This document shows, piece by piece, positions 2,040 through 63,746 of a stretch of DNA of 64,000 bases (positions are counted from its first letter, which is position 1; the number at the start of each line of letters is the position of its first letter). Made by a program: the position numbers and the translations under genes. The notes beneath the pieces were generated by a model, which ran no database searches, was not told where the DNA came from, and saw only the letters and a list, made by a program, of their open reading frames with translations. The DNA is from Longimicrobiales bacterium. Lineage in GTDB: Bacteria; Gemmatimonadota; Gemmatimonadetes; Longimicrobiales; Gaopeijiaceae. Location: the NCBI GenBank assembly GCA_965221265.1, contig OZ244873.1:74013-138012 (forward strand), in the 5' to 3' direction.

Positions 2040-3526
2040 TGCTCGTTCTCGACCTCGCACTCAAGTCGCTCCGCAACCGTGCCTTCAGCACCTCGCTCAC
2101 CGTGGGCTCCATCGCCCTCAGCGTCGCGCTCCTGATTGGCGTCGAGAACGTGCGCGAGGGCATGCGCGAGAGCTTCTCCAACACCATCAGCCAGACCGAC
2201 CTCATCGTGGGCACCAAAGGCGGCACGATTCAGCTGCTGCTGTATTCGGTCTTCGGCATGGGGGCGTCGACGGAAAACGTTTCGTGGGAGGCGTACAGGC
2301 AGTGGGCGGAGCACCCCGCGGTCGCGTGGACCATTCCGTACAGCCTGGGGGACAGCCACAGGGGATTCCGGGTCATCGGCACCAACGAGGACTTCTTTCG
2401 CCACTACCGCTACCGCGGAGGTCAGGAGATCGCGCTGGCGGAGGGACGGGCGAACGAGGAACTGTTCGACGTGACGCTGGGCGCGGACGTGGCGGTGGAG
2501 CTGGACTACGCGCTCGGCGACGAGATCTCGGTGACGCACGGGCTCGGCGAGGTGGGCTTCGTGCAGCACGACCACATGCCCTTCACGGTGGTCGGCGTGC
2601 TCGCCAAGACGTTCACCCCCGTGGACCGCGCCATCTACGTGACCCTGGAGGGCATGGAGGCCATCCACTGGGAGGACGGCGCGCCACCCGCGTCGGGCGA
2701 GACCCACGACCACGACCATGAGGCGGCGGCCGCGGACGACGACCACGCCCACGAAGCGGACGACGACGACGACCACGACCACGAGGCGGACGACGACGAC
2801 GCCCACGACCACGAAGCGGACGACGACGACGCCCACGACCATGAGGCGGACGACGACGACGCCCACGAAGTGGACGACGACCACGCTCACGACGACGAGG
2901 CGGAGGCGGCCGCGGCCCCCGCGGACGACGACCACGCCCACCAAGCGGATCTCTCCATCGAAGACGTCGAGGTTACCCAGGTGACCTCCTTCTTCGTGGG
3001 GACCACCAACCGGCGGGACGTGCTCCGGCTGCAGCGCGAAGTCAACGACTTCGAGGACGAGCCCATGATGGCGGTCATCCCCGGGGTGGCCCTCAACGAG
3101 ATGTGGCAGGGGATCGGCTACGCCGAGACCGGGCTCCGACTGGTCACCGTCTTCGTCGTGATGGTGGGGCTGCTGGGCATGCTCGTGTCGCTCTACACCT
3201 CGCTCGACGAACGCCGCCGCGAGATGGCGATCCTGCGCGCCGTCGGAGCCGGACCCGGACGCATCGTCGGGCTGTTGGTGCTCGAGTCGCTGTGCCTGGC
3301 CGGAGCGGGCGCCATCGCGGGATTGGGCTTGGTGTACGCGCTACTCTCGATCGCGCAGCCCATCGTCGAGGCCCAGGTGGGGCTCTTCATCCCCATCCGG
3401 GCCCCCGGATCCATCGAGCTCCTCTTCCTGGGCGCCGTGGTGACGGCCGGCTTCCTGATGGGCTTCGTGCCCGCCCTCAAGGCCTATCGCACGGCGCTGC
3501 ACGACGGGCTGGCGGTGCGGGTGTAG
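2039..3526 (+). CDS. ABC transporter permease, FtsX/MacB-like, with a His/Asp-rich insertion in the extracytoplasmic loop
   Basis: ATG overlaps the ATPase stop (TGATG). It has an N-terminal TM helix, a large periplasmic domain and C-terminal FtsX-type TM helices (LGMLVSLYTSLDERRREMAILRAVGA). Confidence 0.85.
   Translation: MLVLDLALKSLRNRAFSTSLTVGSIALSVALLIGVENVREGMRESFSNTISQTDLIVGTKGGTIQLLLYSVFGMGASTENVSWEAYRQWAEHPAVAWTIPYSLGDSHRGFRVIGTNEDFFRHYRYRGGQEIALAEGRANEELFDVTLGADVAVELDYALGDEISVTHGLGEVGFVQHDHMPFTVVGVLAKTFTPVDRAIYVTLEGMEAIHWEDGAPPASGETHDHDHEAAAADDDHAHEADDDDDHDHEADDDDAHDHEADDDDAHDHEADDDDAHEVDDDHAHDDEAEAAAAPADDDHAHQADLSIEDVEVTQVTSFFVGTTNRRDVLRLQREVNDFEDEPMMAVIPGVALNEMWQGIGYAETGLRLVTVFVVMVGLLGMLVSLYTSLDERRREMAILRAVGAGPGRIVGLLVLESLCLAGAGAIAGLGLVYALLSIAQPIVEAQVGLFIPIRAPGSIELLFLGAVVTAGFLMGFVPALKAYRTALHDGLAVRV
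2704..2950 (+). repeat. 30-bp in-frame tandem repeat (about 5 copies) encoding (H-D-H-E-A-D-D-D-D-A)n inside the permease gene
   Basis: Repeated unit gacgacgacgacgcccacgaccacgaagcggac. Translation: HDHDHEAAAADDDHAHEADDDDDHDHEADDDDAHDHEADDDDAHDHEADDDDAHEVDDDHAHDDEAEA. Confidence 0.85.
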
Positions 3527-3554
3527 GGGGAGGGTCGTTCGGCGGCCGCCGTCC

Positions 3555-4451
3555 TCAGCGCCCCGCCAGCCAGCGGTAGACCGCGCCCACATTGAGGGGG
3601 AACCACGCCTCGTACTGGCCCCAGTGGGCGTAGTCGTCGAGCCGCACGCCCGCCATGGCCTCCTCCTCCGACATCCCTTCGTCGAGCGCCGCCTGGACGG
3701 CGTCCCGCAGATCGCCGTAGTAGGCCAGCTGGCGCTCGATGGTGGCCCGGTCGCCCACGTCTCCGTGCCCGAAGACCACGGTCTCGAAGGGAATCTCCAT
3801 GAGCCGGTCGAGCGCCACGTAGAACTCGTCGAAGTGCCAACCCGGCAGATCCTGGTAGCCGACCCGGTCGTTGCTGACGAAATCGACCGCGAAGGCGACG
3901 CGCTCCTCGGGGAGGAAGGCCACCAGCAGGTTGTCGGTGTGGCTTCGTCCGAGGTACCGCAGCTCGATCGCGCGCCCGCCGAACCGGAGCGTCATCTGGT
4001 CGGAGAAGGTCAGGTCCGGGGGCGGAAGGTCCGGGTCGGCCCGCTCAAGGAGGATGGGCAGCGCGTTCTCCTGAGCGATGATCGGAACGTCGCCGCCGAA
4101 TTCGGCCCACAGCGCGGGCGCTCCGGTGGCGTGGTCGGCGTCGCTATGGCTGTAGACGATGGCCGCGAGGGGTTGGTTGGGCGCGGCACCGCGAATGGCG
4201 GCCCCTAGCCCGGCCGCCGCCTCCATCGAAATGGGGTCGAAGGCCACCACGCCGTCGTCGGTGTCCACGAAGAAGGCGTTGTGCGTGCCCGCGTTGTACC
4301 AGAAGACGCCGTCGGCGACCTGGCGGGTGGCGGCGTCCACCTCGGGAGCCTGCTCCGCCGTGTCGGCGCAGGCGCCCAAGGTCAGGGCGAGGGCGGTCGC
4401 GACCGCGAGCCCGGGCAGCGAGGTCGGGGGGGATGGGGTGGGTCGGGTCAT
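3555..4451 (-). CDS. MBL-fold metallo-hydrolase (metallo-beta-lactamase superfamily), secreted/lipoprotein
   Basis: HSDADH (HxHxDH) motif. Start chosen at MTRPTP with an AAGGAGGA RBS 7 nt upstream. The signal peptide LALTLGACAD looks like a lipobox. Confidence 0.8.
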   Translation of the reverse strand: MTRPTPSPPTSLPGLAVATALALTLGACADTAEQAPEVDAATRQVADGVFWYNAGTHNAFFVDTDDGVVAFDPISMEAAAGLGAAIRGAAPNQPLAAIVYSHSDADHATGAPALWAEFGGDVPIIAQENALPILLERADPDLPPPDLTFSDQMTLRFGGRAIELRYLGRSHTDNLLVAFLPEERVAFAVDFVSNDRVGYQDLPGWHFDEFYVALDRLMEIPFETVVFGHGDVGDRATIERQLAYYGDLRDAVQAALDEGMSEEEAMAGVRLDDYAHWGQYEAWFPLNVGAVYRWLAGR

Positions 4452-5688: not shown

Positions 5689-6852
5689 GTGTCGGTGGCG
5701 GGGACAGCTGCGGGCGGCACCCGCCCGACCGCCTCATCGCTGGCGCCACTCCTCTTGGTTGCGATGGCCTGCACAACCCCGGACGATGCGACGGAGCCAA
5801 GGGAAATGGCGATTCCCTTGGCTCCGGTCGCGTCGTCCGAAGCACCCCTGAGCCGCAACACGCGCATCGCCCTCCCGACCGAGGAGACCGCATGCGTTAT
5901 TGACGACTACGAGGTGCGGGTCCATTGCATCCACCGCGACCAACGGACCTCCGCGATCTTCGGGCGACGGGGCGAGGGCCCCGGTGAGTTTCCCGAGTCG
6001 GGCAGCAGGAGGATCGTCCGGGGCCGCAACGCCACCATCGGTGTCGTCACGTCGAGCCGCTTGTCGGTATTCGACGTGTCCGGAGAATTGTTGTCCGACA
6101 TTGGATTGCCGCGGCGCCTAATGCCATCGGCACCGTTCGATTCCATTCTGTCGGGATACTATCTTCAGTTGGATTATCGGCCACCGTACAAGAGGGAATA
6201 TCGGGCAGTCGACTTGGATATCCGAAGTGGGGCGATTCTGTGGGAACGGGTCTACCCGCGCGACATGGCTGCCGGGGCCCGCTGTCCGGGCCCACCCCTG
6301 CCGGAGGGCGTCGCGCCTCCGCGAGGCTTGGCCACTGCAAGGTTCCTCTCCATCGGCGCATTCTTCATTCTGTGCCGTGGGCAATTGCTCTTTCTGGAGG
6401 ATCGAAGAGATGAGGGCGGGACGCTCATCCAAGCCCCCCTGTACGCCGACGTATTCCCCAGCCCGGAGGACGTGGAGCGATACGTGGAACTCTGCGATGC
6501 TCCGGCTCGCCGGCTCCTCGAAATACCCTGCGAGCCCGAGGAATACGCCCGCACGCCCGAGAACTACAGCGCCCAAACCTGGGTGGACGACCAAGACCGC
6601 CTTTGGGCACTCACCAATCGGGATCGCGAGTCGTTCTCTCATCTAGACGTCTTCATCGGCCTGGAGTTTGCGGGATCGGTTCGAGTGCGCCACCGCGCCG
6701 TGGGATTCGACGTGCTCGGTACGACGCTCGTCATCTTGGTGGACCACCCAGTGGGAACAAATGATCCCGACGGAATCCCGGACCGAGGCATCGACTGGTA
6801 CGACATCGGCGAATTGGAGTTGGGGGTGGGCGACCCAGGCCCTCATCGATAG
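5689..6852 (+). CDS. NHL-repeat lipoprotein, paralog B (about 45% identical to A)
   Basis: Same motif pattern (FGRRGEGPGEF, CRGQLLF, DWYDIGEL). Putative GTG start at 5689. The first ~220 aa of the listed ORF 5020.. are out-of-frame read-through of paralog A. Confidence 0.6.
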   Translation: MSVAGTAAGGTRPTASSLAPLLLVAMACTTPDDATEPREMAIPLAPVASSEAPLSRNTRIALPTEETACVIDDYEVRVHCIHRDQRTSAIFGRRGEGPGEFPESGSRRIVRGRNATIGVVTSSRLSVFDVSGELLSDIGLPRRLMPSAPFDSILSGYYLQLDYRPPYKREYRAVDLDIRSGAILWERVYPRDMAAGARCPGPPLPEGVAPPRGLATARFLSIGAFFILCRGQLLFLEDRRDEGGTLIQAPLYADVFPSPEDVERYVELCDAPARRLLEIPCEPEEYARTPENYSAQTWVDDQDRLWALTNRDRESFSHLDVFIGLEFAGSVRVRHRAVGFDVLGTTLVILVDHPVGTNDPDGIPDRGIDWYDIGELELGVGDPGPHR

Positions 6853-8730: not shown

Positions 8731-10008
8731 GTGCGAGTCGTTCAGCCCTTCGCCATCTGTCTCTCCCTCTCCATCTTGTCGACAGGTGACGTACGGGCGC
8801 AGATCGGCCAACGCGTATACGCGTGTGAACTGGATCGACGCCCCATTGAGGGCCTGCTCCTAGCTCACCGATCCGCCATGACCGATGCGGAGGCGCCCGT
8901 GGTGTCGTCGGCCCGTTTTGCCCCTGACGGCACCATCGTCGCAGTGGATCAATCGGCCAAACGCGTTTTGATACTTGATTCAGATCTCGACATTGTACGT
9001 GATGTCGGTCGCGCTGGACCTGGGCCTGGCGAATACGACGATCCGGTCGCAGCCGTCATGGATGATCAGGGACGAATATTTGTGGCCGACGGCGCCGGCG
9101 GCGTAACCACCGTGATCGTCTACGATCCAGACGGTTCGTTTGTTAGGCAGGATCAGCTGCCGCTGTATTTGTCCCCGCGCGCGTTGGCCACAGATGGCCA
9201 GTTGGTCTACGTTGCGGGTCAAGCTCTGTTCTTCACCGATCCCCCTCCTGACAACCGACCCTTGCTCGCCGCGTATGATCCCACAACCGGCGAAACTCAA
9301 GTCATGCTTGAACAGGATCCTGATTGGTTTGGCGAGCCGCCAGTGTACCGAAACTCGTTTGTCAACCTCATTCCAAGAGTTGATGCGCTCGGCAATATAT
9401 GTGTGGGATTTGTGGAAGGATACGAGATATGGAAAATCACGGGACCAAATGAATATGACGTGATCCTGCGCGGTTGCGTACCCGAAGGAGCCCTTGCCGT
9501 TTATGAAGCCGATGACGATGACCTGCTAATGGGCCAAGGGTCATCCAGTTTCCCTCCAGGACTTGATCTGAACTTTCGGCCTCCCCGACCTTCATATCAA
9601 ATATTGTCCGATTTCGCCGTGCTCTCGGATGGGTACATTGTTACCCGATCCGTGCTCTATGTTGATGAAGCCGGTAAGCGGAGTATGGAGTTGTTTTCTG
9701 GAGAAGGCACTCTTGAGCGAGCGTGGTCGCTGGGTCCCGGACGGCTGCTGACCGGATGGGGTGTCATGGACGGCAACGATCCATCGCGCCAATTCTCTTG
9801 GAACGCGAACAACGGCACATCCGTACTTGGCCAGTTTCCGTTCATTGACGCCGAAGCGGAAGCAGATCCGGATGCTGCCCCCTCACGGGAACGTGGCGGA
9901 TCCGATGGCAGAGGTAGGGTGATTGGTCTTTGGATCTCGGTCTTGCTTGGAGCGTTGGTCATTCTCGTTGCCGCGGGGGGCGCCCTCCACCGGCGTCGGC
10001 GGCTGTGA
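8731..10008 (+). CDS. NHL-like 6-bladed beta-propeller protein with signal peptide and C-terminal TM anchor; lower-GC (~55%) gene
   Basis: GTG 8731 (or TTG 8725) gives the signal peptide MRVVQPFAICLSLSILSTGDVRA. NHL-like GPGPGEYDDPVAAVMDDQGRIFVAD. C-terminal LWISVLLGALVILVAAGGALHRRRRL. GC is clearly below neighbours. Starts 9-15 bp after the IS256 right end. Confidence 0.65.
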   Translation: MRVVQPFAICLSLSILSTGDVRAQIGQRVYACELDRRPIEGLLLAHRSAMTDAEAPVVSSARFAPDGTIVAVDQSAKRVLILDSDLDIVRDVGRAGPGPGEYDDPVAAVMDDQGRIFVADGAGGVTTVIVYDPDGSFVRQDQLPLYLSPRALATDGQLVYVAGQALFFTDPPPDNRPLLAAYDPTTGETQVMLEQDPDWFGEPPVYRNSFVNLIPRVDALGNICVGFVEGYEIWKITGPNEYDVILRGCVPEGALAVYEADDDDLLMGQGSSSFPPGLDLNFRPPRPSYQILSDFAVLSDGYIVTRSVLYVDEAGKRSMELFSGEGTLERAWSLGPGRLLTGWGVMDGNDPSRQFSWNANNGTSVLGQFPFIDAEAEADPDAAPSRERGGSDGRGRVIGLWISVLLGALVILVAAGGALHRRRRL

Positions 10009-38943: not shown

Positions 38944-39066
38944 AACTCATCGAGACCGGCTGAGGGACTGGCCCTGTGAAGCCGGGGCAACCGGATCGTT
39001 CTCCCTGGAGAGCGATCAGCGGTGCCAACTCCCGCGGGTTCCGGAAATGGAATCCGAGAGATGAGT
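38944..39066 (+). promoter_or_regulatory. SAM-I (S-box) riboswitch
   Basis: cTCATCgAGAccggcTGAGGGAcTGGCCCtgTGAaGCCggGGCAACC ... GGTGCCAAcTCC ... GAGAGATGAG. The P1 halves CUCAUC/GAUGAG, the GGGA...GGCCC pseudoknot/P2 elements, and the GCAACC and GGUGCCAA consensus blocks are all present. Confidence 0.8.
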
Positions 39067-39274
39067 GCCTCGGTCGGCTCCTCGCCGCCCGGCGGTTCCA
39101 GGGGTTGGCATCGCGTCCAACCCGTGGAGAGCCAGCATGCGAGCGACCACCGCCCCACCCCGCCCGACCCCCGCGCCGCCGTTCCTTCCCGCCGCCAACG
39201 CGCGCGCTTCCAATGACGGTCGGCCTCCGGCCGCCCCCGCGCTGCCACCCACCGCCCGTCGCGGGACCGTCTCC

Positions 39275-41518
39275 ATGCCCCGGGGGTGGAGGCCGGAGCT
39301 CGAGCCCGGGCTGAACGCGCGCTTCCGGGTTCCCTTCGAGTTGACCGGGGCGGAGGGTGCCCCGCTGCTCGTGCTTCTGGGTGGCATTTCGGCGGACCGC
39401 CACGTCTGCGCGAACCTCGCCGACCCGTCCGCGGGCTGGTGGCGTCGGATCGTCGGACCGGGGCTGGCCATCGATCCAAGCCGGTGGCGGGTGCTGGGCA
39501 TCGACTTCATCGGAGCGCCCGGCACCATCGATCCGCTGGGCGACCACGGGGGCCGGGCGCGGTTCAACGTCACCCCCGGCGACCAGGCCGACGCGGTGGC
39601 GGCCGTGCTCGACCACCTCGGCGAGGAGCGCGCGCACCGCGTGGTGGGGGCGTCCTACGGGGGCAACGTGGCGCTGGCGTTGGGCATCCGGCACGCCGAG
39701 CGCGCGGACGGCGTGGTGCTGGTGGCGGCGGCGCACCGCCCGCACCCCCTGGCCACCGGCGTGCGCGGCGCGCAGCGCGCGATCATGGAGCTCGGGCGCG
39801 ACCACGGCCGGGAGGCCGACGCCGTCGCCATCGCGCGCGCGCTGGCCTTCACGACCTACAAGACGGCCGCCGGGCTGGACGCGCGCTTCGACTTCGCCGC
39901 CGACGTGTCGGAGGGCCGCCCGGCACACCCCGTCGACGGGTATCTGCTCAGCCGCGGGCGCGCGTTCGCCGAGCGCTTCGACGCGCGGGCGTACCTCACG
40001 CTCTCCGGGTCCATCGACCTGTGCGACCTCCGACCCGAGGAGCTGACCCTGCCCAGCTGGCTGATCTCCTGGGAGGAGGACGGGCTGGTGCCGCTCTGGC
40101 TGGTGGAGGAGGCGCATCGTCGGGCCGGAGCGCGGTCCACCTTGCGCGTCTTGCGGTCGGCGGCCGGACACGACGCCTTCCTGCTCGCGGATCCCGCGTA
40201 CGCCGAGGCGCTGCGGGAAGCCTGCGCGCCCGCGGCCAACGGGCCGGGCGACGCGACGCGCGACGAGGGCGGGGAGGGCCACATCGGCGTGGGCGGCGCC
40301 CCCGGGACCGCGCGACGACGCGAACCCGCGCGCCCGACCCGGACGCGGGGAACCGAGTTGGTTCGGGCCGGGGTGGGCGACGACCCCGCCCACGGGGCGG
40401 TCATGCCCCCCGTCCATCTCTCCAGCAACTTCCGATTCCGGGCCTTGGGAGACGCGCCCAAGTACGACTACACCCGCTCGGGCAACCCCACCCGCGACCA
40501 TCTCGCCTCCGCGCTGGCGCGCCTGGAGGGCGGCGCGGGGGCGGTGGCGACCTCCTCGGGGATGTCCGCGGTGGCCGTCGTCCTCAACCTGCTCCGGGCC
40601 GACGATCTGGTGCTGGCCCCGCACGACTGCTATGGCGGCACCCACCGCCTGCTGACGGGCCTTCGGCGCCAGGGACGGCTGCGCGTGCGCTTCGTGGACT
40701 TCACCAACCCGGCCTCGCTCGCGGCCGGGCTTGAGGCCGCCCCGCGCATGATCTGGGTCGAGACCCCCAGCAACCCGCTCCTGCGCATCACCGACCTGGC
40801 CACCGTGGCGCGCGAGGCCCGACGCGTGGGAGCGATCGCGGTCGCCGACAACACCTTCCTCTCGCCGGCGCTCCAGCGGCCCCTGGACTTCGGCTTCGAC
40901 GTGGTGGTGCACTCCACCACCAAGTTCATCAACGGCCACAGCGACGTGGTGGGCGGGGCCGTGGTGGCGGCCGACGACGCGCTCGTCGAGGAGATCGCGT
41001 GGTGGACCAACGCCGCGGGCACGGCCCAGAGTCCCTTCGACAGCTACCTGGCGCTGCGCGGCGCGCGCACCCTCTTCGCCCGCACCCGCGTCCACGAGGA
41101 GAACGCGCGCGCGGTCGTCAACCTGCTGGCCTCGCATCCCGCCGTCGCGCGGGTGTGCCACCCGGGGCTAGCGACGCACCCCGGGCACCGCATCGCCCGC
41201 CGCCAGCAGTCCGGGTACGGCAGCCTCCTGAGCGTCGAGCTGGAGGGCGGTCGTCCCGCGGCCGAGGCGCTCCTCTCCCGGCTGCGCCTGTTCACCCTGG
41301 CCGAGTCGCTGGGCGGGGTGGAGAGCCTGGTCTGTCACCCGGCCACCATGACCCACGCGGCCATGGACGCGGCGGCCCAGGCGGTCGCGGGGATCGGCGA
41401 GGGTCTGCTTCGAATCTCCGTCGGCATCGAGTCGGCGGACGACCTGGTCGCCGACCTGGAGCAGGCGTTGCCGGGCGGCCGCGCGAAGGCCCACCTCGGC
41501 GCCGCGGGCCGTGGATGA
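39275..41518 (+). CDS. bifunctional fusion: N-terminal homoserine O-acetyltransferase-like alpha/beta hydrolase (MetX-like) + C-terminal Cys/Met-metabolism PLP enzyme (cystathionine gamma-synthase / O-acetylhomoserine sulfhydrylase-like)
   Basis: N-terminal half has GASYGG (GxSxG) and a C-terminal His. An ~45-aa Gly/Arg-rich linker follows. C-terminal half has STTKFINGHSDVVGG (PLP-Lys), same frame with no stop between. Start ambiguous (ATG 39275 or 39129). Confidence 0.65.
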   Translation: MPRGWRPELEPGLNARFRVPFELTGAEGAPLLVLLGGISADRHVCANLADPSAGWWRRIVGPGLAIDPSRWRVLGIDFIGAPGTIDPLGDHGGRARFNVTPGDQADAVAAVLDHLGEERAHRVVGASYGGNVALALGIRHAERADGVVLVAAAHRPHPLATGVRGAQRAIMELGRDHGREADAVAIARALAFTTYKTAAGLDARFDFAADVSEGRPAHPVDGYLLSRGRAFAERFDARAYLTLSGSIDLCDLRPEELTLPSWLISWEEDGLVPLWLVEEAHRRAGARSTLRVLRSAAGHDAFLLADPAYAEALREACAPAANGPGDATRDEGGEGHIGVGGAPGTARRREPARPTRTRGTELVRAGVGDDPAHGAVMPPVHLSSNFRFRALGDAPKYDYTRSGNPTRDHLASALARLEGGAGAVATSSGMSAVAVVLNLLRADDLVLAPHDCYGGTHRLLTGLRRQGRLRVRFVDFTNPASLAAGLEAAPRMIWVETPSNPLLRITDLATVAREARRVGAIAVADNTFLSPALQRPLDFGFDVVVHSTTKFINGHSDVVGGAVVAADDALVEEIAWWTNAAGTAQSPFDSYLALRGARTLFARTRVHEENARAVVNLLASHPAVARVCHPGLATHPGHRIARRQQSGYGSLLSVELEGGRPAAEALLSRLRLFTLAESLGGVESLVCHPATMTHAAMDAAAQAVAGIGEGLLRISVGIESADDLVADLEQALPGGRAKAHLGAAGRG

Positions 41519-61704: not shown

Positions 61705-62862
61705 TCAGACCACCTTCACGGGGTGCGGAAGCGCGAGGTTGAGCAGGTAGCCCTTCTGGTTCCAAGTGTTCGCCAAGGGCTGGGTGTTGCCCGCGGAGTC
61801 GGTGGCGCGGGTGCGCAGCGTGCGGGTGCCCGGCGTCGCCCGCCACTCGAACTCGAAACGCGTCCAGGCGTGGCGCAGGCGCGGTCCGACCAGGCGCGCG
61901 CGGGCCCAGTTGGCCCCGTCGTCCGCGCTCCACTCCACCGACTCGACGGGACCGTGCCCGGAGTGGGCGAACCCGCGCATCAGGTTGGGCCCCGCCCGCA
62001 CCGTGGCCGGCCAGGGGAGGGACAGCGCGCTCTTCACCGGGAGCGCCGTCACGGGAGCGCCCTCGGCGGGCGCGTACCGTTCGGCCGGCCAGTCCGGGCC
62101 GACCAGGACGTACGAGCTGGTGTTGGCGCGCACCCAGATCGGCTCGGTGGACACTTGGATCTCCCCCACCCACTTGATGCTGTTGCTGCCCGCCCAGCCC
62201 GGCACCACGCCGCGCACCGGGAAGCCGTGGTCGGGGGGCAGCGGCGCGCCGTTCATGGTCAGGGCGAGCAGGGTGTCCGGGTCCATGGCCTTGTCCAGCG
62301 GCATGGGCCGGCTGAAGCCTCCGTCGTCGAGACCCACGAGGTTCACCGCCACCGCGTCCGGCCGCGGTCCGGCCGCCGCGAGCACGGCGGCCAGGGACGG
62401 TCCCGACCACTCCGCGCATCCCACCGCGCCCGTGCCCCACTGCGTGCCCTCGGCCGCCCGCCCCGTCACCCGCGCGAAGAAGCCGCGCCAGTTGCCGGCG
62501 CACTCCAGGTACGCGATCACCGACTGGTTCGGCAGGGCGCGCAGCTCGTCGAGCCCGAGTTCGACGCTCCGCTCCACGCCGTCGCCGGTGACCCGCAGGC
62601 GGTAGTCCGCCGCCGCGATGCGCGGGGTCGGGGCGTGGTTGCGCACGAAGAACAGGTCGTTGGGGGTGATGAGGCCGTCCAGCAGCTCGAGCCGGCTCTC
62701 CAGGTTGGTGGCGTGGCGGATGAAGGGACCCGGGTCCTTGACCCACGCGGTTTCGGGTCCGGAATCCATCGCGTCGGCTCCGGAGCGGCAGCCGGGCAGA
62801 AGGGCCGATGCCCCGCCCGCGGCCAGCACCCCCGCGAACCGGCGGCGTGAGAGCGGGCTCAC
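61705..62862 (-). CDS. sulfite oxidase-family molybdopterin oxidoreductase (SorA/YedY-like), Tat-secreted
   Basis: Tat signal SRRRFAGVLAAGG. Moco-binding Cys region YLECAGNWRG. Dimerisation domain. Confidence 0.9.
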   Translation of the reverse strand: MSPLSRRRFAGVLAAGGASALLPGCRSGADAMDSGPETAWVKDPGPFIRHATNLESRLELLDGLITPNDLFFVRNHAPTPRIAAADYRLRVTGDGVERSVELGLDELRALPNQSVIAYLECAGNWRGFFARVTGRAAEGTQWGTGAVGCAEWSGPSLAAVLAAAGPRPDAVAVNLVGLDDGGFSRPMPLDKAMDPDTLLALTMNGAPLPPDHGFPVRGVVPGWAGSNSIKWVGEIQVSTEPIWVRANTSSYVLVGPDWPAERYAPAEGAPVTALPVKSALSLPWPATVRAGPNLMRGFAHSGHGPVESVEWSADDGANWARARLVGPRLRHAWTRFEFEWRATPGTRTLRTRATDSAGNTQPLANTWNQKGYLLNLALPHPVKVV

Positions 62863-63317
62863 GAGAGCACCTCGATGTCAAGTTCGGTGGAGAACTCGAC
62901 GCACCCCGCCAAGGTGCGGTAAACCGGGCAGAACGGATGATGGATCTCGTGCGCCCGCCGCGCCCGCTCCTCCCCGCCGGCCTCCATGCGCAGCGTGTAG
63001 CGCACATGAATCGTGCGGATCACGAGCACGCCGTCGTCCTTGTCGATGCCTCCCTCGACCTCGGCCGTCAAACGGTCCTGTCCCGCCGGTATCCCGCGCG
63101 CCTCCAGCGCGCCGCCAAGGGTTCCCGCGAGTCAGCCGCCCGCCGCCGCCACGATGTAGTCGAGGGTGGTGGCCACCGGGGTCTCGGGCTCGACCCCGTA
63201 GTGCTTGGCGATGCCGCCGTGCACCCCGAAGAGAACGGGGTCGGGCGTGACCGGCAGATGGGCGTGGCGCAGGGGTCCCGCCTTGCGCTCGATGCGAACC
63301 CTGGAGGTGTGGACCAT
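62859..63317 (-). CDS. OsmC/Ohr-family peroxiredoxin-like protein interrupted by an in-frame TGA at the conserved peroxidatic Cys position (candidate selenoprotein, or pseudogene)
   Basis: ATG 63317 with a GGAAGGAGA RBS. ...TLDYIVAAAGG-TGA(63131..63129)-LAGTLGGAL... aligns with the OsmC PEELIGAAHAAC-FSMAL motif. The second conserved Cys motif HPFCPVYRTL is intact downstream. A GC hairpin GGCGCGCuggagGCGCGCG starts ~20 nt after the TGA. Confidence 0.5.
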
Positions 63318-63464
63318 GGTGCGTCTCCTTCCCGTGGCGGCGGCATGGGCGCCACCCGGAGGTGGTGGCGGCAACGTTGGGGGCGGGACCACGAGCCGGG
63401 CCTCCCCGCCCCTCTCGGCCCATGGACACCCCCCGGCATTCGAGGGGCGCGGCATCCGCGCGGG

Positions 63465-63505
63465 GCCGCTCTCGGTGCTCGGGCGGACTCATCCGCGGAC
63501 TCCCG
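63465..63505 (-). repeat. REP-like repeat, partial inverse copy
   Basis: gccgctctcggtgctcgggcggactcatccgcggac. Confidence 0.6.
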
Positions 63506-63595
63506 CCCGACGGGGCCGAAGCTAACCCATTCGGCGGATCGCGGGAAAGCCGGGCGCCACCCCGCGGGCGAGGTGGCTCGCGCGCCCGGTCGGAA

Positions 63596-63650
63596 GCGCC
63601 TTGCCAGCCCGGCGCCTCGCCGTTCCCGGTCTTCGGCGGATTCATCCACG
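63596..63650 (-). repeat. REP-like repeat, partial inverse copy (other half)
   Basis: gcgccttgccagcccggcgcctcgccgttcccggtcttcggcggattcatccacgaac. Confidence 0.5.
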
Positions 63651-63746
63651 AACTCCTCGAACCCCACCGCCCCGGACTTTCTGTTCTCCCCCGCGGTTCC
63701 CATTATGCCCGACGCGCGCATTCCCTCACGTCAGCGGAGCGAACCA

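Follow-up and report, generated by a model that had tools for sequence, protein, structure and literature searches.

An in-frame UGA in an OsmC-family gene of a Longimicrobiales bacterium as a predicted selenocysteine codon followed by a conserved SECIS-like hairpin

Introduction

Does the in-frame TGA within an OsmC-family gene of a Longimicrobiales bacterium encode selenocysteine (Sec), or does it mark a broken gene? The question is raised by a locus on contig OZ244873.1 (assembly GCA_965221265.1), in a stretch of 64,000 nucleotides (positions 74,013 to 138,012 of the forward strand) that was analysed as a whole and is called the window here. The original prediction, made from the letters of this stretch, joined two open reading frames (ORFs) across a TGA at the catalytic cysteine codon of an OsmC/Ohr-like gene, and offered either a selenoprotein or a one-hit pseudogene as the explanation. 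Our analysis favors the selenoprotein, with a probability of roughly 0.9: UGA-62 would encode Sec in an OsmC-fold peroxidase, Sec insertion and peroxidase chemistry being predicted from comparative sequence data.

OsmC and Ohr proteins use their N-terminal Cys as the peroxidatic residue and their C-terminal Cys as the resolving one. OsmC-like selenoproteins were first recognized in the Sargasso Sea metagenome, as three sequences of COG1765 with the motif UxxT (Zhang, Fomenko & Gladyshev 2005, PMC1088965), and a 2026 review (PMC13188914) continues to count OsmC-like proteins among the prokaryotic selenoprotein families.

Results

A single reading frame split by one TGA

The gene lies on the minus strand, with the following features.

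63325..63333, minus strand: Shine-Dalgarno-like GGGAAGGAG, with a 7-nt spacer before the ATG at 63317..63315 (direct reading of the sequence)
62859..63317, minus strand: OsmC-family gene of 152 sense codons including UGA-62, with its terminal TGA at 62861..62859
63132..63134, minus strand: in-frame UGA, codon 62, predicted selenocysteine at the peroxidatic position
63096..63112, minus strand: hairpin resembling a bacterial selenocysteine insertion sequence (bSECIS), with 5′ arm GCGCGC (63112-63107), loop UGGAG (63106-63102), and 3′ arm GCGCGC (63101-63096)
62928..62930, minus strand: TGC, Cys130, the predicted resolving cysteine (HHPFCPVYR), from alignments

Translation from the ATG at 63317 to the TGA at 62861-62859 meets exactly one internal stop. 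The two ORFs are indeed one frame split by a single TGA, and the read-through product has 152 residues. This TGA had been placed at 63129-63131, 3 nt away from its true site (63134..63132), because the end coordinate in the ORF list includes the stop codon. The ribosome-binding site proposed for the gene is present as the Shine-Dalgarno-like element 7 nt from the ATG. A scan for promoters and terminators around the gene found none.

We scanned the window for TGA codons with at least 40 stop-free codons on each side and a GC content by codon position (GC1 to GC3) typical of coding sequence (GC1>GC2, GC3 of about 0.9). Codon 62 was the only TGA with a true coding signature on both flanks; the remaining matches were rejected as interrupted genes, being boundaries of neighboring genes. 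No further in-frame-TGA gene came up, either in the window or in the sequences flanking the gene in close relatives. Among the 32 confident ORFs of the window, 19 end in TGA and 13 in TAG. Since TGA ends 19 of these 32 ORFs and also the OsmC gene itself, the genetic code is not reassigned. None of the 32 ends in TAA, which is seemingly avoided in this 70% GC genome.

The TGA is conserved across phyla, and both of its flanks are under purifying selection

One genome per GTDB species was scanned, giving 414 relatives; codon counts were made on the best 80 of them. The aligned codon is TGA in 79 of these 80 species-level genomes and TGT in one (L068, Pyrinomonadaceae). The 80 genomes span at least eight phyla; they include Gemmatimonadota (Longimicrobiales, Candidatus Palauibacter), Chloroflexota, NC10/Methylomirabilota, and Acidobacteriota, and further lineages such as Nitrospinota, Nitrospirota (Candidatus Sulfobium), KSB1, and Desulfobacterales. 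Closest are 17 Longimicrobiales-type genomes, whose proteins are 86-89% identical in amino acids and share the same architecture. Several of the closest relatives are sponge- or coral-derived metagenome-assembled genomes (MAGs), as judged from isolate names. Four MAGs labelled 'Gammaproteobacteria bacterium' (L002, L003, L004, L008) carry a protein 87-88% identical to, and syntenic with, that of Longimicrobiales/Gemmatimonadetes; these bins are probably mislabelled or contaminated.

Comparison of the window with eight relatives gave ratios of nonsynonymous to synonymous substitution rates (dN/dS) of 0.10-0.26 for the 61 codons upstream of the TGA and 0.13-0.22 for the 90 codons downstream. The low downstream values indicate that the part beyond the 'stop' is translated, and in the same frame.

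Homologs with a cysteine codon at this column had been called for as a check, and they exist, one of them close and many more distant. Besides TGT in L068, 67 unique Cys-type DNA sequences from a metagenome scan, which gave 506 matches, carry TGC or TGT there. Among 120 database protein homologs, 76 have Cys at the UGA column, and 25 are fragments of about 85-90 aa that start at or just after the codon following it. The 'W' given at the Sec column in L165 and L166 is TGA read under genetic code 4. That every database 'W' or 'G' at this column is a TGA recoded under codes 4/25 was considered and rejected: L161 has a real TGG, and P0003/L167 a real TCA. L161 (1376-1894), with Trp at this column and a frameshifted C terminus, is probably a decaying copy. 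In L167 (254-823), where the residue is Ser, the stem of the hairpin described below is kept through a compensatory pair change, GCGCUC/GAGCGC, at the cost of an Ala-to-Glu replacement.

Sec would occupy the peroxidatic position of an OsmC fold

The read-through protein matches Pfam OsmC (PF02566) over residues 52-144 with 52.6 bits, against a gathering score of 27.5. As originally proposed, the TGA falls at the peroxidatic Cys: the UGA-62 column corresponds to the N-terminal catalytic Cys of Thermus thermophilus OsmC 1ukk (AAHAGC-FSMAL versus AAAGG-U-LAGTL) and is an invariant Cys among the Cys-form homologs in the alignments. The resolving Cys is likewise intact, since Cys130 aligns with the C-terminal Cys of 1ukk and is invariant across the family alignments. 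The similarity to 1ukk is very low (phmmer E=0.005), and the NCBIfam model TIGR03562 (OsmC subfamily peroxiredoxin) scores 19.2 bits against a cutoff of 85.8. No reliable alignment of the N-terminal region to sequences of solved OsmC/Ohr structures was obtained.

For the fold, we modelled the closest Cys-form homolog, P0002, which is 58% identical to the window's protein. Its AlphaFold model has a predicted local distance difference test score (pLDDT) of 90.5 and a predicted template modelling (TM) score (pTM) of 0.82, and its best 50 PDB matches are all OsmC/Ohr (probability 1.00, TM 0.6-0.8). In this model the Sec-column residue falls within the first half of a long helix, with the second Cys at a helix junction. 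The product of the gene, of about 16 kDa, would be a cytoplasmic OsmC/Ohr-fold thiol-type hydroperoxide reductase, for which peroxidase chemistry and a reductant are predicted.

The hairpin is constrained in Sec-type genes

The hairpin GCGCGC-UGGAG-GCGCGC has exactly the 6-bp GC stem and UGGAG loop that the original prediction described. Its stem starts 19 nt, and its loop 25 nt, after the UGA. Published rules for bSECIS elements ask for a loop of 3-9 nt, a stem of 4-16 bp, a distance of 16-37 nt from UGA to loop, and a minimum free energy of at most -7.5 kcal/mol; the loop should have G within its first two positions, in the pattern N1-G-[G|U]-N-N2 (PMC13188914, a 2026 review). The hairpin agrees with every one of these rules, with its 5-nt loop UGGAG, stem of 6-7 bp, distance of 25 nt, and energy of -11.2 kcal/mol.

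Across 78 unique Sec-type sequences, the stem codons have a third-position entropy of 0-0.3 bits, apart from 0.7 at the CGC/CGT wobble, where either base can pair; most flanking codons in the same genes have 1.3-1.9 bits. As a control we used the clade of 67 unique Cys-type genes from the metagenome scan, which encode the same GALEAR peptide. The successive stem codons are GGC/GGT in 71, GCG in 72, CTG in 72, GCG in 71, and CGC/CGT in 72 of 72 Sec-type genes, whereas GGC, GCG, CTG, GCG, and CGC occur in 35, 33, 23, 60, and 52 of the 67 control genes, respectively. The full set of six pairs is possible in 70/72 Sec-type genes versus 18/67 Cys-type genes (Fisher p=7e-20, without phylogenetic correction), and the mean core energy is -10.8 versus -6.7 kcal/mol.

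RNAalifold returned this stem as the sole consensus structure over 74 unique Sec-type sequences; 98.8% of the cells are paired, and the changes are only GC/GU and CG/UG. Furthermore, GC3 in Sec-type genes ranges from 0.36 to 0.97, and the hairpin is kept even at the lowest value. In the AT-rich genomes L071, L073, L080, L165, and L166, the GC-perfect stem stands amid A/T-rich surroundings. Close relatives with the same TGA and no hairpin would have spoken against Sec; in the 17 related species, the hairpin is kept together with the TGA. On this comparative evidence, the element appears SECIS-like and under an RNA-level constraint specific to the Sec form, and SelB would be expected to bind it.

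The genomic neighborhood differs between lineages

Downstream of the OsmC gene, on the same strand, lie a sulfite-oxidase-family gene, a c-type cytochrome gene, and then a HAD hydrolase gene. The first two are the following.

61705..62862, minus strand: molybdopterin oxidoreductase of the sulfite-oxidase family with a twin-arginine translocation (Tat) signal (SRRRF); Pfam Oxidored_molyb 176.5 bits, Mo-co_dimer 41.7 bits
61222..61659, minus strand: c-type cytochrome (CAFCH); Pfam Cytochrome_CBB3 37.8 bits

The OsmC gene had been described as translationally coupled, through ATGA, to a sulfite-oxidase/cytochrome c redox operon. The genes are there, and an overlap exists, in which the GTG start of the sulfite-oxidase gene at 62862 runs into the OsmC stop. 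The junction, however, is GTGA rather than ATGA, and coupling is not conserved even in close relatives, where the sulfite-oxidase gene starts tens of nucleotides past the OsmC stop without overlap. The sulfite-oxidase/cytochrome arrangement itself is conserved only in the Longimicrobiales-type relatives (L001-L018). Neighbor clustering found no partner gene recurring beside Sec-OsmC across phyla. A conserved cross-phylum operon partner was considered and rejected: the top cluster is an antisense ORF over OsmC, and the rest reflect synteny within the Palauibacter clade. A functional tie of the OsmC protein to the sulfite oxidation and cytochrome c genes is therefore speculative, since the arrangement is lineage-specific and no cross-phylum partner emerged.

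On the upstream side, the stretch from the divergent Nramp gene to the OsmC gene is about 1.1 kb longer in L001-L017 than in the window. The added DNA of L006 encodes a class-V aminotransferase-like protein (8762-9964; Aminotran_5, 60 bits) on the OsmC strand. This gene is missing from the window, where an intergenic region of 430 nt (63318-63745) takes its place. In the Palauibacter clade (L031-L067), ORFs resembling SufD and SufS (cysteine desulfurase) were noted by eye 3.5-4.5 kb upstream of OsmC; this Fe-S-assembly-like synteny is again lineage-specific, unlike the sulfite-oxidase context of the window. Elsewhere in the window, an S-adenosylmethionine (SAM) riboswitch (RF00162, 81.7 bits against a gathering score of 44.4) was found at 38944-39067 on the plus strand, directly 5′ of a long plus-strand ORF (39065..41518).

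Discussion

The present study supports selenocysteine as the meaning of UGA-62. The reading is carried by the UGA in 79 of 80 species, the Cys homologs, purifying selection on both halves of the gene, and a hairpin constraint specific to the Sec form. In the mechanism that we propose, the hairpin 19 nt past UGA-62 would act as a bacterial SECIS and recruit SelB-GTP-Sec-tRNA(Sec) to the ribosome. UGA-62 alone would then be read as Sec, and all other UGAs, including the terminator of the gene itself, would act as stops. The selenolate of Sec62, at the start of the long central helix, would attack the hydroperoxide to give a selenenic acid, which Cys130 on the second helix would resolve to a selenenylsulfide. 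A dithiol reductant would recycle the enzyme; in characterized OsmC/Ohr enzymes the reductant is a lipoyl protein.

Several observations weigh against this reading. The 64-kb window holds no tRNA of any kind and, among Rfam families, neither tRNA-Sec nor a SECIS, the SAM riboswitch being the only match; tblastn with Escherichia coli SelA, SelB, and SelD gave no matches in it. No selA, selB, selD, or tRNA-Sec was found in the ±10 kb flanks of 17 close relatives, nor any of these in the extra 6 kb of L164, a public European Nucleotide Archive (ENA) contig with the same gene, which hold Nramp, CoA transferase, thiamine pyrophosphate (TPP) enzyme, and other genes. In the Chloroflexota locus L070 discussed below, the OsmC copy is interrupted by an extra TAA at codon 89 (GAA to TAA); either the assembly is wrong at this point or the gene is degraded. 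As for the hairpin, its 45-nt context in the window, taken alone, folds no better than dinucleotide shuffles (z=0.11). The Sec-type alignment holds no double compensatory change in the stem, and conservation of structure and of sequence are inseparable there because the encoded amino acid fixes one side of each pair. The hairpin also occurs in the sole Cys form, L068, and in the Ser form, L167.

Some of these points have a ready explanation. An unremarkable 45-nt context is expected in a window of 70% GC; the 18-nt core, at -11.2 kcal/mol, gave z=-2.65 in the window alone. The significance of the hairpin appears to stem from the comparative data rather than from the sequence of the window. The hairpin of L068 is most simply explained by a recent switch from Sec to Cys.

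Indirect signs of Sec use were found elsewhere. L070 has a bona fide selA (2485-4071; PF03841, 461 bits) on the same strand as its Sec-OsmC gene (about 5761-6219) and 1.7 kb upstream of it; no other locus has a selA adjoining Sec-OsmC. Two other candidates were rejected: an ARAGORN 'tRNA-SeC' in L017, of 70 nt and without an Rfam tRNA or tRNA-Sec match at E<=1, and a tblastn 'selB' match in L023, which is IF-2. In L166 (Joint Genome Institute (JGI) 3300077723 contig), a Prx-like (AhpC-TSA/Redoxin) gene at 248-895 on the plus strand lies directly upstream of Sec-OsmC. It has an in-frame TGA at 'GSW-U-PYC' (UxxC) and its own downstream hairpin, CUCCGUG-AGUUG-CACGGAG; two selenoprotein candidates adjoin here, and the source pipeline had used genetic code 4 in calling both genes. 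In sponge symbionts, SelA and SelB co-occur in most bins (Slaby et al. 2017, PMC5649159), and Table S4 of that report gives SelA=1, SelB=1, and SelD=1 for both Gemmatimonadetes bins.

The absence of Sec machinery from the window and from the relatives' flanks is what would be expected if the gene were evolutionarily intact and its UGA were not Sec here, either because the machinery had been lost and the gene was silent or truncated, or because Trp or Cys was inserted through low-level suppression. The TGG of L161 and the TCA of L167 likewise show that the position can drift. We nevertheless regard this explanation as unlikely. In the window and its 17 related species, the TGA and the hairpin are retained and the downstream dN/dS is low, a state that would not last if translation ended at codon 62. 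Besides, L161, with its frameshifted C terminus, looks decayed rather than functional, and sponge Gemmatimonadetes bins are reported to encode SelA, SelB, and SelD. A recent nonsense mutation in an ordinary Cys-OsmC gene, the one-hit pseudogene of the original prediction, has in its favor that there is a single stop, that it sits at the Cys codon, and that it lies one mutation from TGC or TGT. A recent accident, however, does not fit with a TGA common to 79/80 species in at least eight phyla, with purifying selection downstream of the stop, or with an RNA-level constraint specific to the TGA-bearing genes, and the pseudogene must be considered very unlikely.

Likewise, a sequencing or assembly error hiding a TGC is hardly credible, since the 459-nt gene is identical on the ENA contig L164 and TGA occurs in 79 other assemblies from different technologies, including closed long-read chromosomes. 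The databases would have two separate small genes at the locus, one for an N-terminal peptide of 61 aa and one for a C-terminal 'OsmC family protein' of 70-90 aa: the gene caller split the gene of L164 into ORFs of 61 and 70 aa, and RefSeq and GenBank list relatives as a 90-aa 'OsmC family protein', including RefSeq WP_ records for Candidatus Palauibacter. These entries are split or truncated because annotation pipelines miss UGA as Sec. Against two genes stands the CTC that follows the TGA; a start codon becomes available only 20 codons on (TTG at 63071), and its use would lose conserved helix residues. Moreover, the Cys-form homologs are single polypeptides of 150-175 aa, and the OsmC fold, as modelled, would require both halves. 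Two independent genes thus seem highly improbable, and Sec at codon 62 remains the reading that we prefer.

How does this predicted selenoprotein relate to known ones? The original prediction pointed to OsmC-like selenoproteins in metagenomic surveys. These do exist, but those published belong to a different subfamily. With the NCBIfam model NF041052, 'OsmC-related (seleno)protein' (OsmC_like_Se), the window protein scores 13.3 bits, whereas the Sargasso protein AACY01145085 scores 157.4 against a cutoff of 95. BLASTP of the window protein against the Sargasso proteins gave only a local match of 25 residues around the active site (E=0.016). With the OsmC-like proteins from the Sargasso Sea and Global Ocean Sampling (GOS) data (NF041052) it shares the OsmC superfamily, Sec where the central helix starts, in place of the N-terminal catalytic Cys, a retained C-terminal Cys, and a small hairpin inside the ORF about 15-20 nt after the UGA. 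The motif, however, is GG-U-L(A/T)GT in the subfamily of the window and GF-U-LLT in the Sargasso proteins (UxxT; published as GIGF-U-LLTQ/N). The hairpins are GCGCGC-UGGAR-GCGCGY and AGCG-GUA-CGCU, respectively, and the window subfamily adds an N-terminal region of about 50 residues (VRIER..GPLR..LP..PV.FGVHG). The gene is thus predicted to encode an OsmC-superfamily selenoprotein that falls outside the catalogued family as NCBI defines it.

Among proteins of known structure, OsmC (E. coli 1qwi/1nye, T. thermophilus 1ukk) and Ohr (Xylella fastidiosa 1zb9) have the same fold, and their two catalytic positions align with ours. The window protein differs from these two-Cys enzymes in having predicted Sec for Cys and in its very low sequence similarity. 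Prx, Prx-like, and AhpD-like selenoproteins are also redox enzymes with Sec for a catalytic Cys and a bSECIS inside the ORF, but their folds (thioredoxin, AhpD) are unrelated to OsmC. With the E. coli fdhF-type SECIS and the bSECISearch consensus, the hairpin shares a stem-loop inside the ORF just past the UGA and a G at loop position 2 followed by another G. In contrast to the fdhF type, its stem is a minimal, all-GC one of 6-7 bp; the conserved lower stem and bulged U are absent, and only the upper stem is conserved.

Among the papers available to our literature search, none describes a second OsmC selenoprotein subfamily. OsmC is unmentioned in the main text of the deep-Sep and BSepDB papers, a statement that covers the main text and not their databases, and a cluster look-up gave no link between this subfamily and MCS5647933.1, the representative in the 2026 review. 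We put forward, with evenly divided confidence, a second and uncatalogued selenoprotein subfamily of the OsmC superfamily. It would be distinct from NF041052, mostly of Sec type among its closest members (79/80), spread over at least eight phyla, and systematically cut to about 90 aa in RefSeq and GenBank. Its near-invariant 17-nt minimal SECIS core, GCGCGC-UGGAR-GCGCGY, would also fix the peptide GALEAR.

The understanding of selenoproteins as such is unchanged, since Sec-for-Cys replacement in peroxidases and OsmC-like selenoproteins were already established. For annotation, splitting or truncation affects the gene and relatives from at least 79 species, and the sole NCBIfam model for OsmC-like selenoproteins misses this subfamily. 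If the reading is true, selenoproteome surveys and Sec-trait maps of Gemmatimonadota, Chloroflexota, Methylomirabilota, and Acidobacteriota would undercount it. Mechanistically, a very short, near-invariant GC hairpin kept across phyla and GC contents points to a coding sequence constrained by both protein and SECIS function, and the invariant core would offer a convenient natural minimal SECIS for studies of SelB recognition across phyla. In terms of physiology, this Longimicrobiales-type lineage, with sponges and corals as the source of many of its relatives, would then use selenium for its defense against peroxides.

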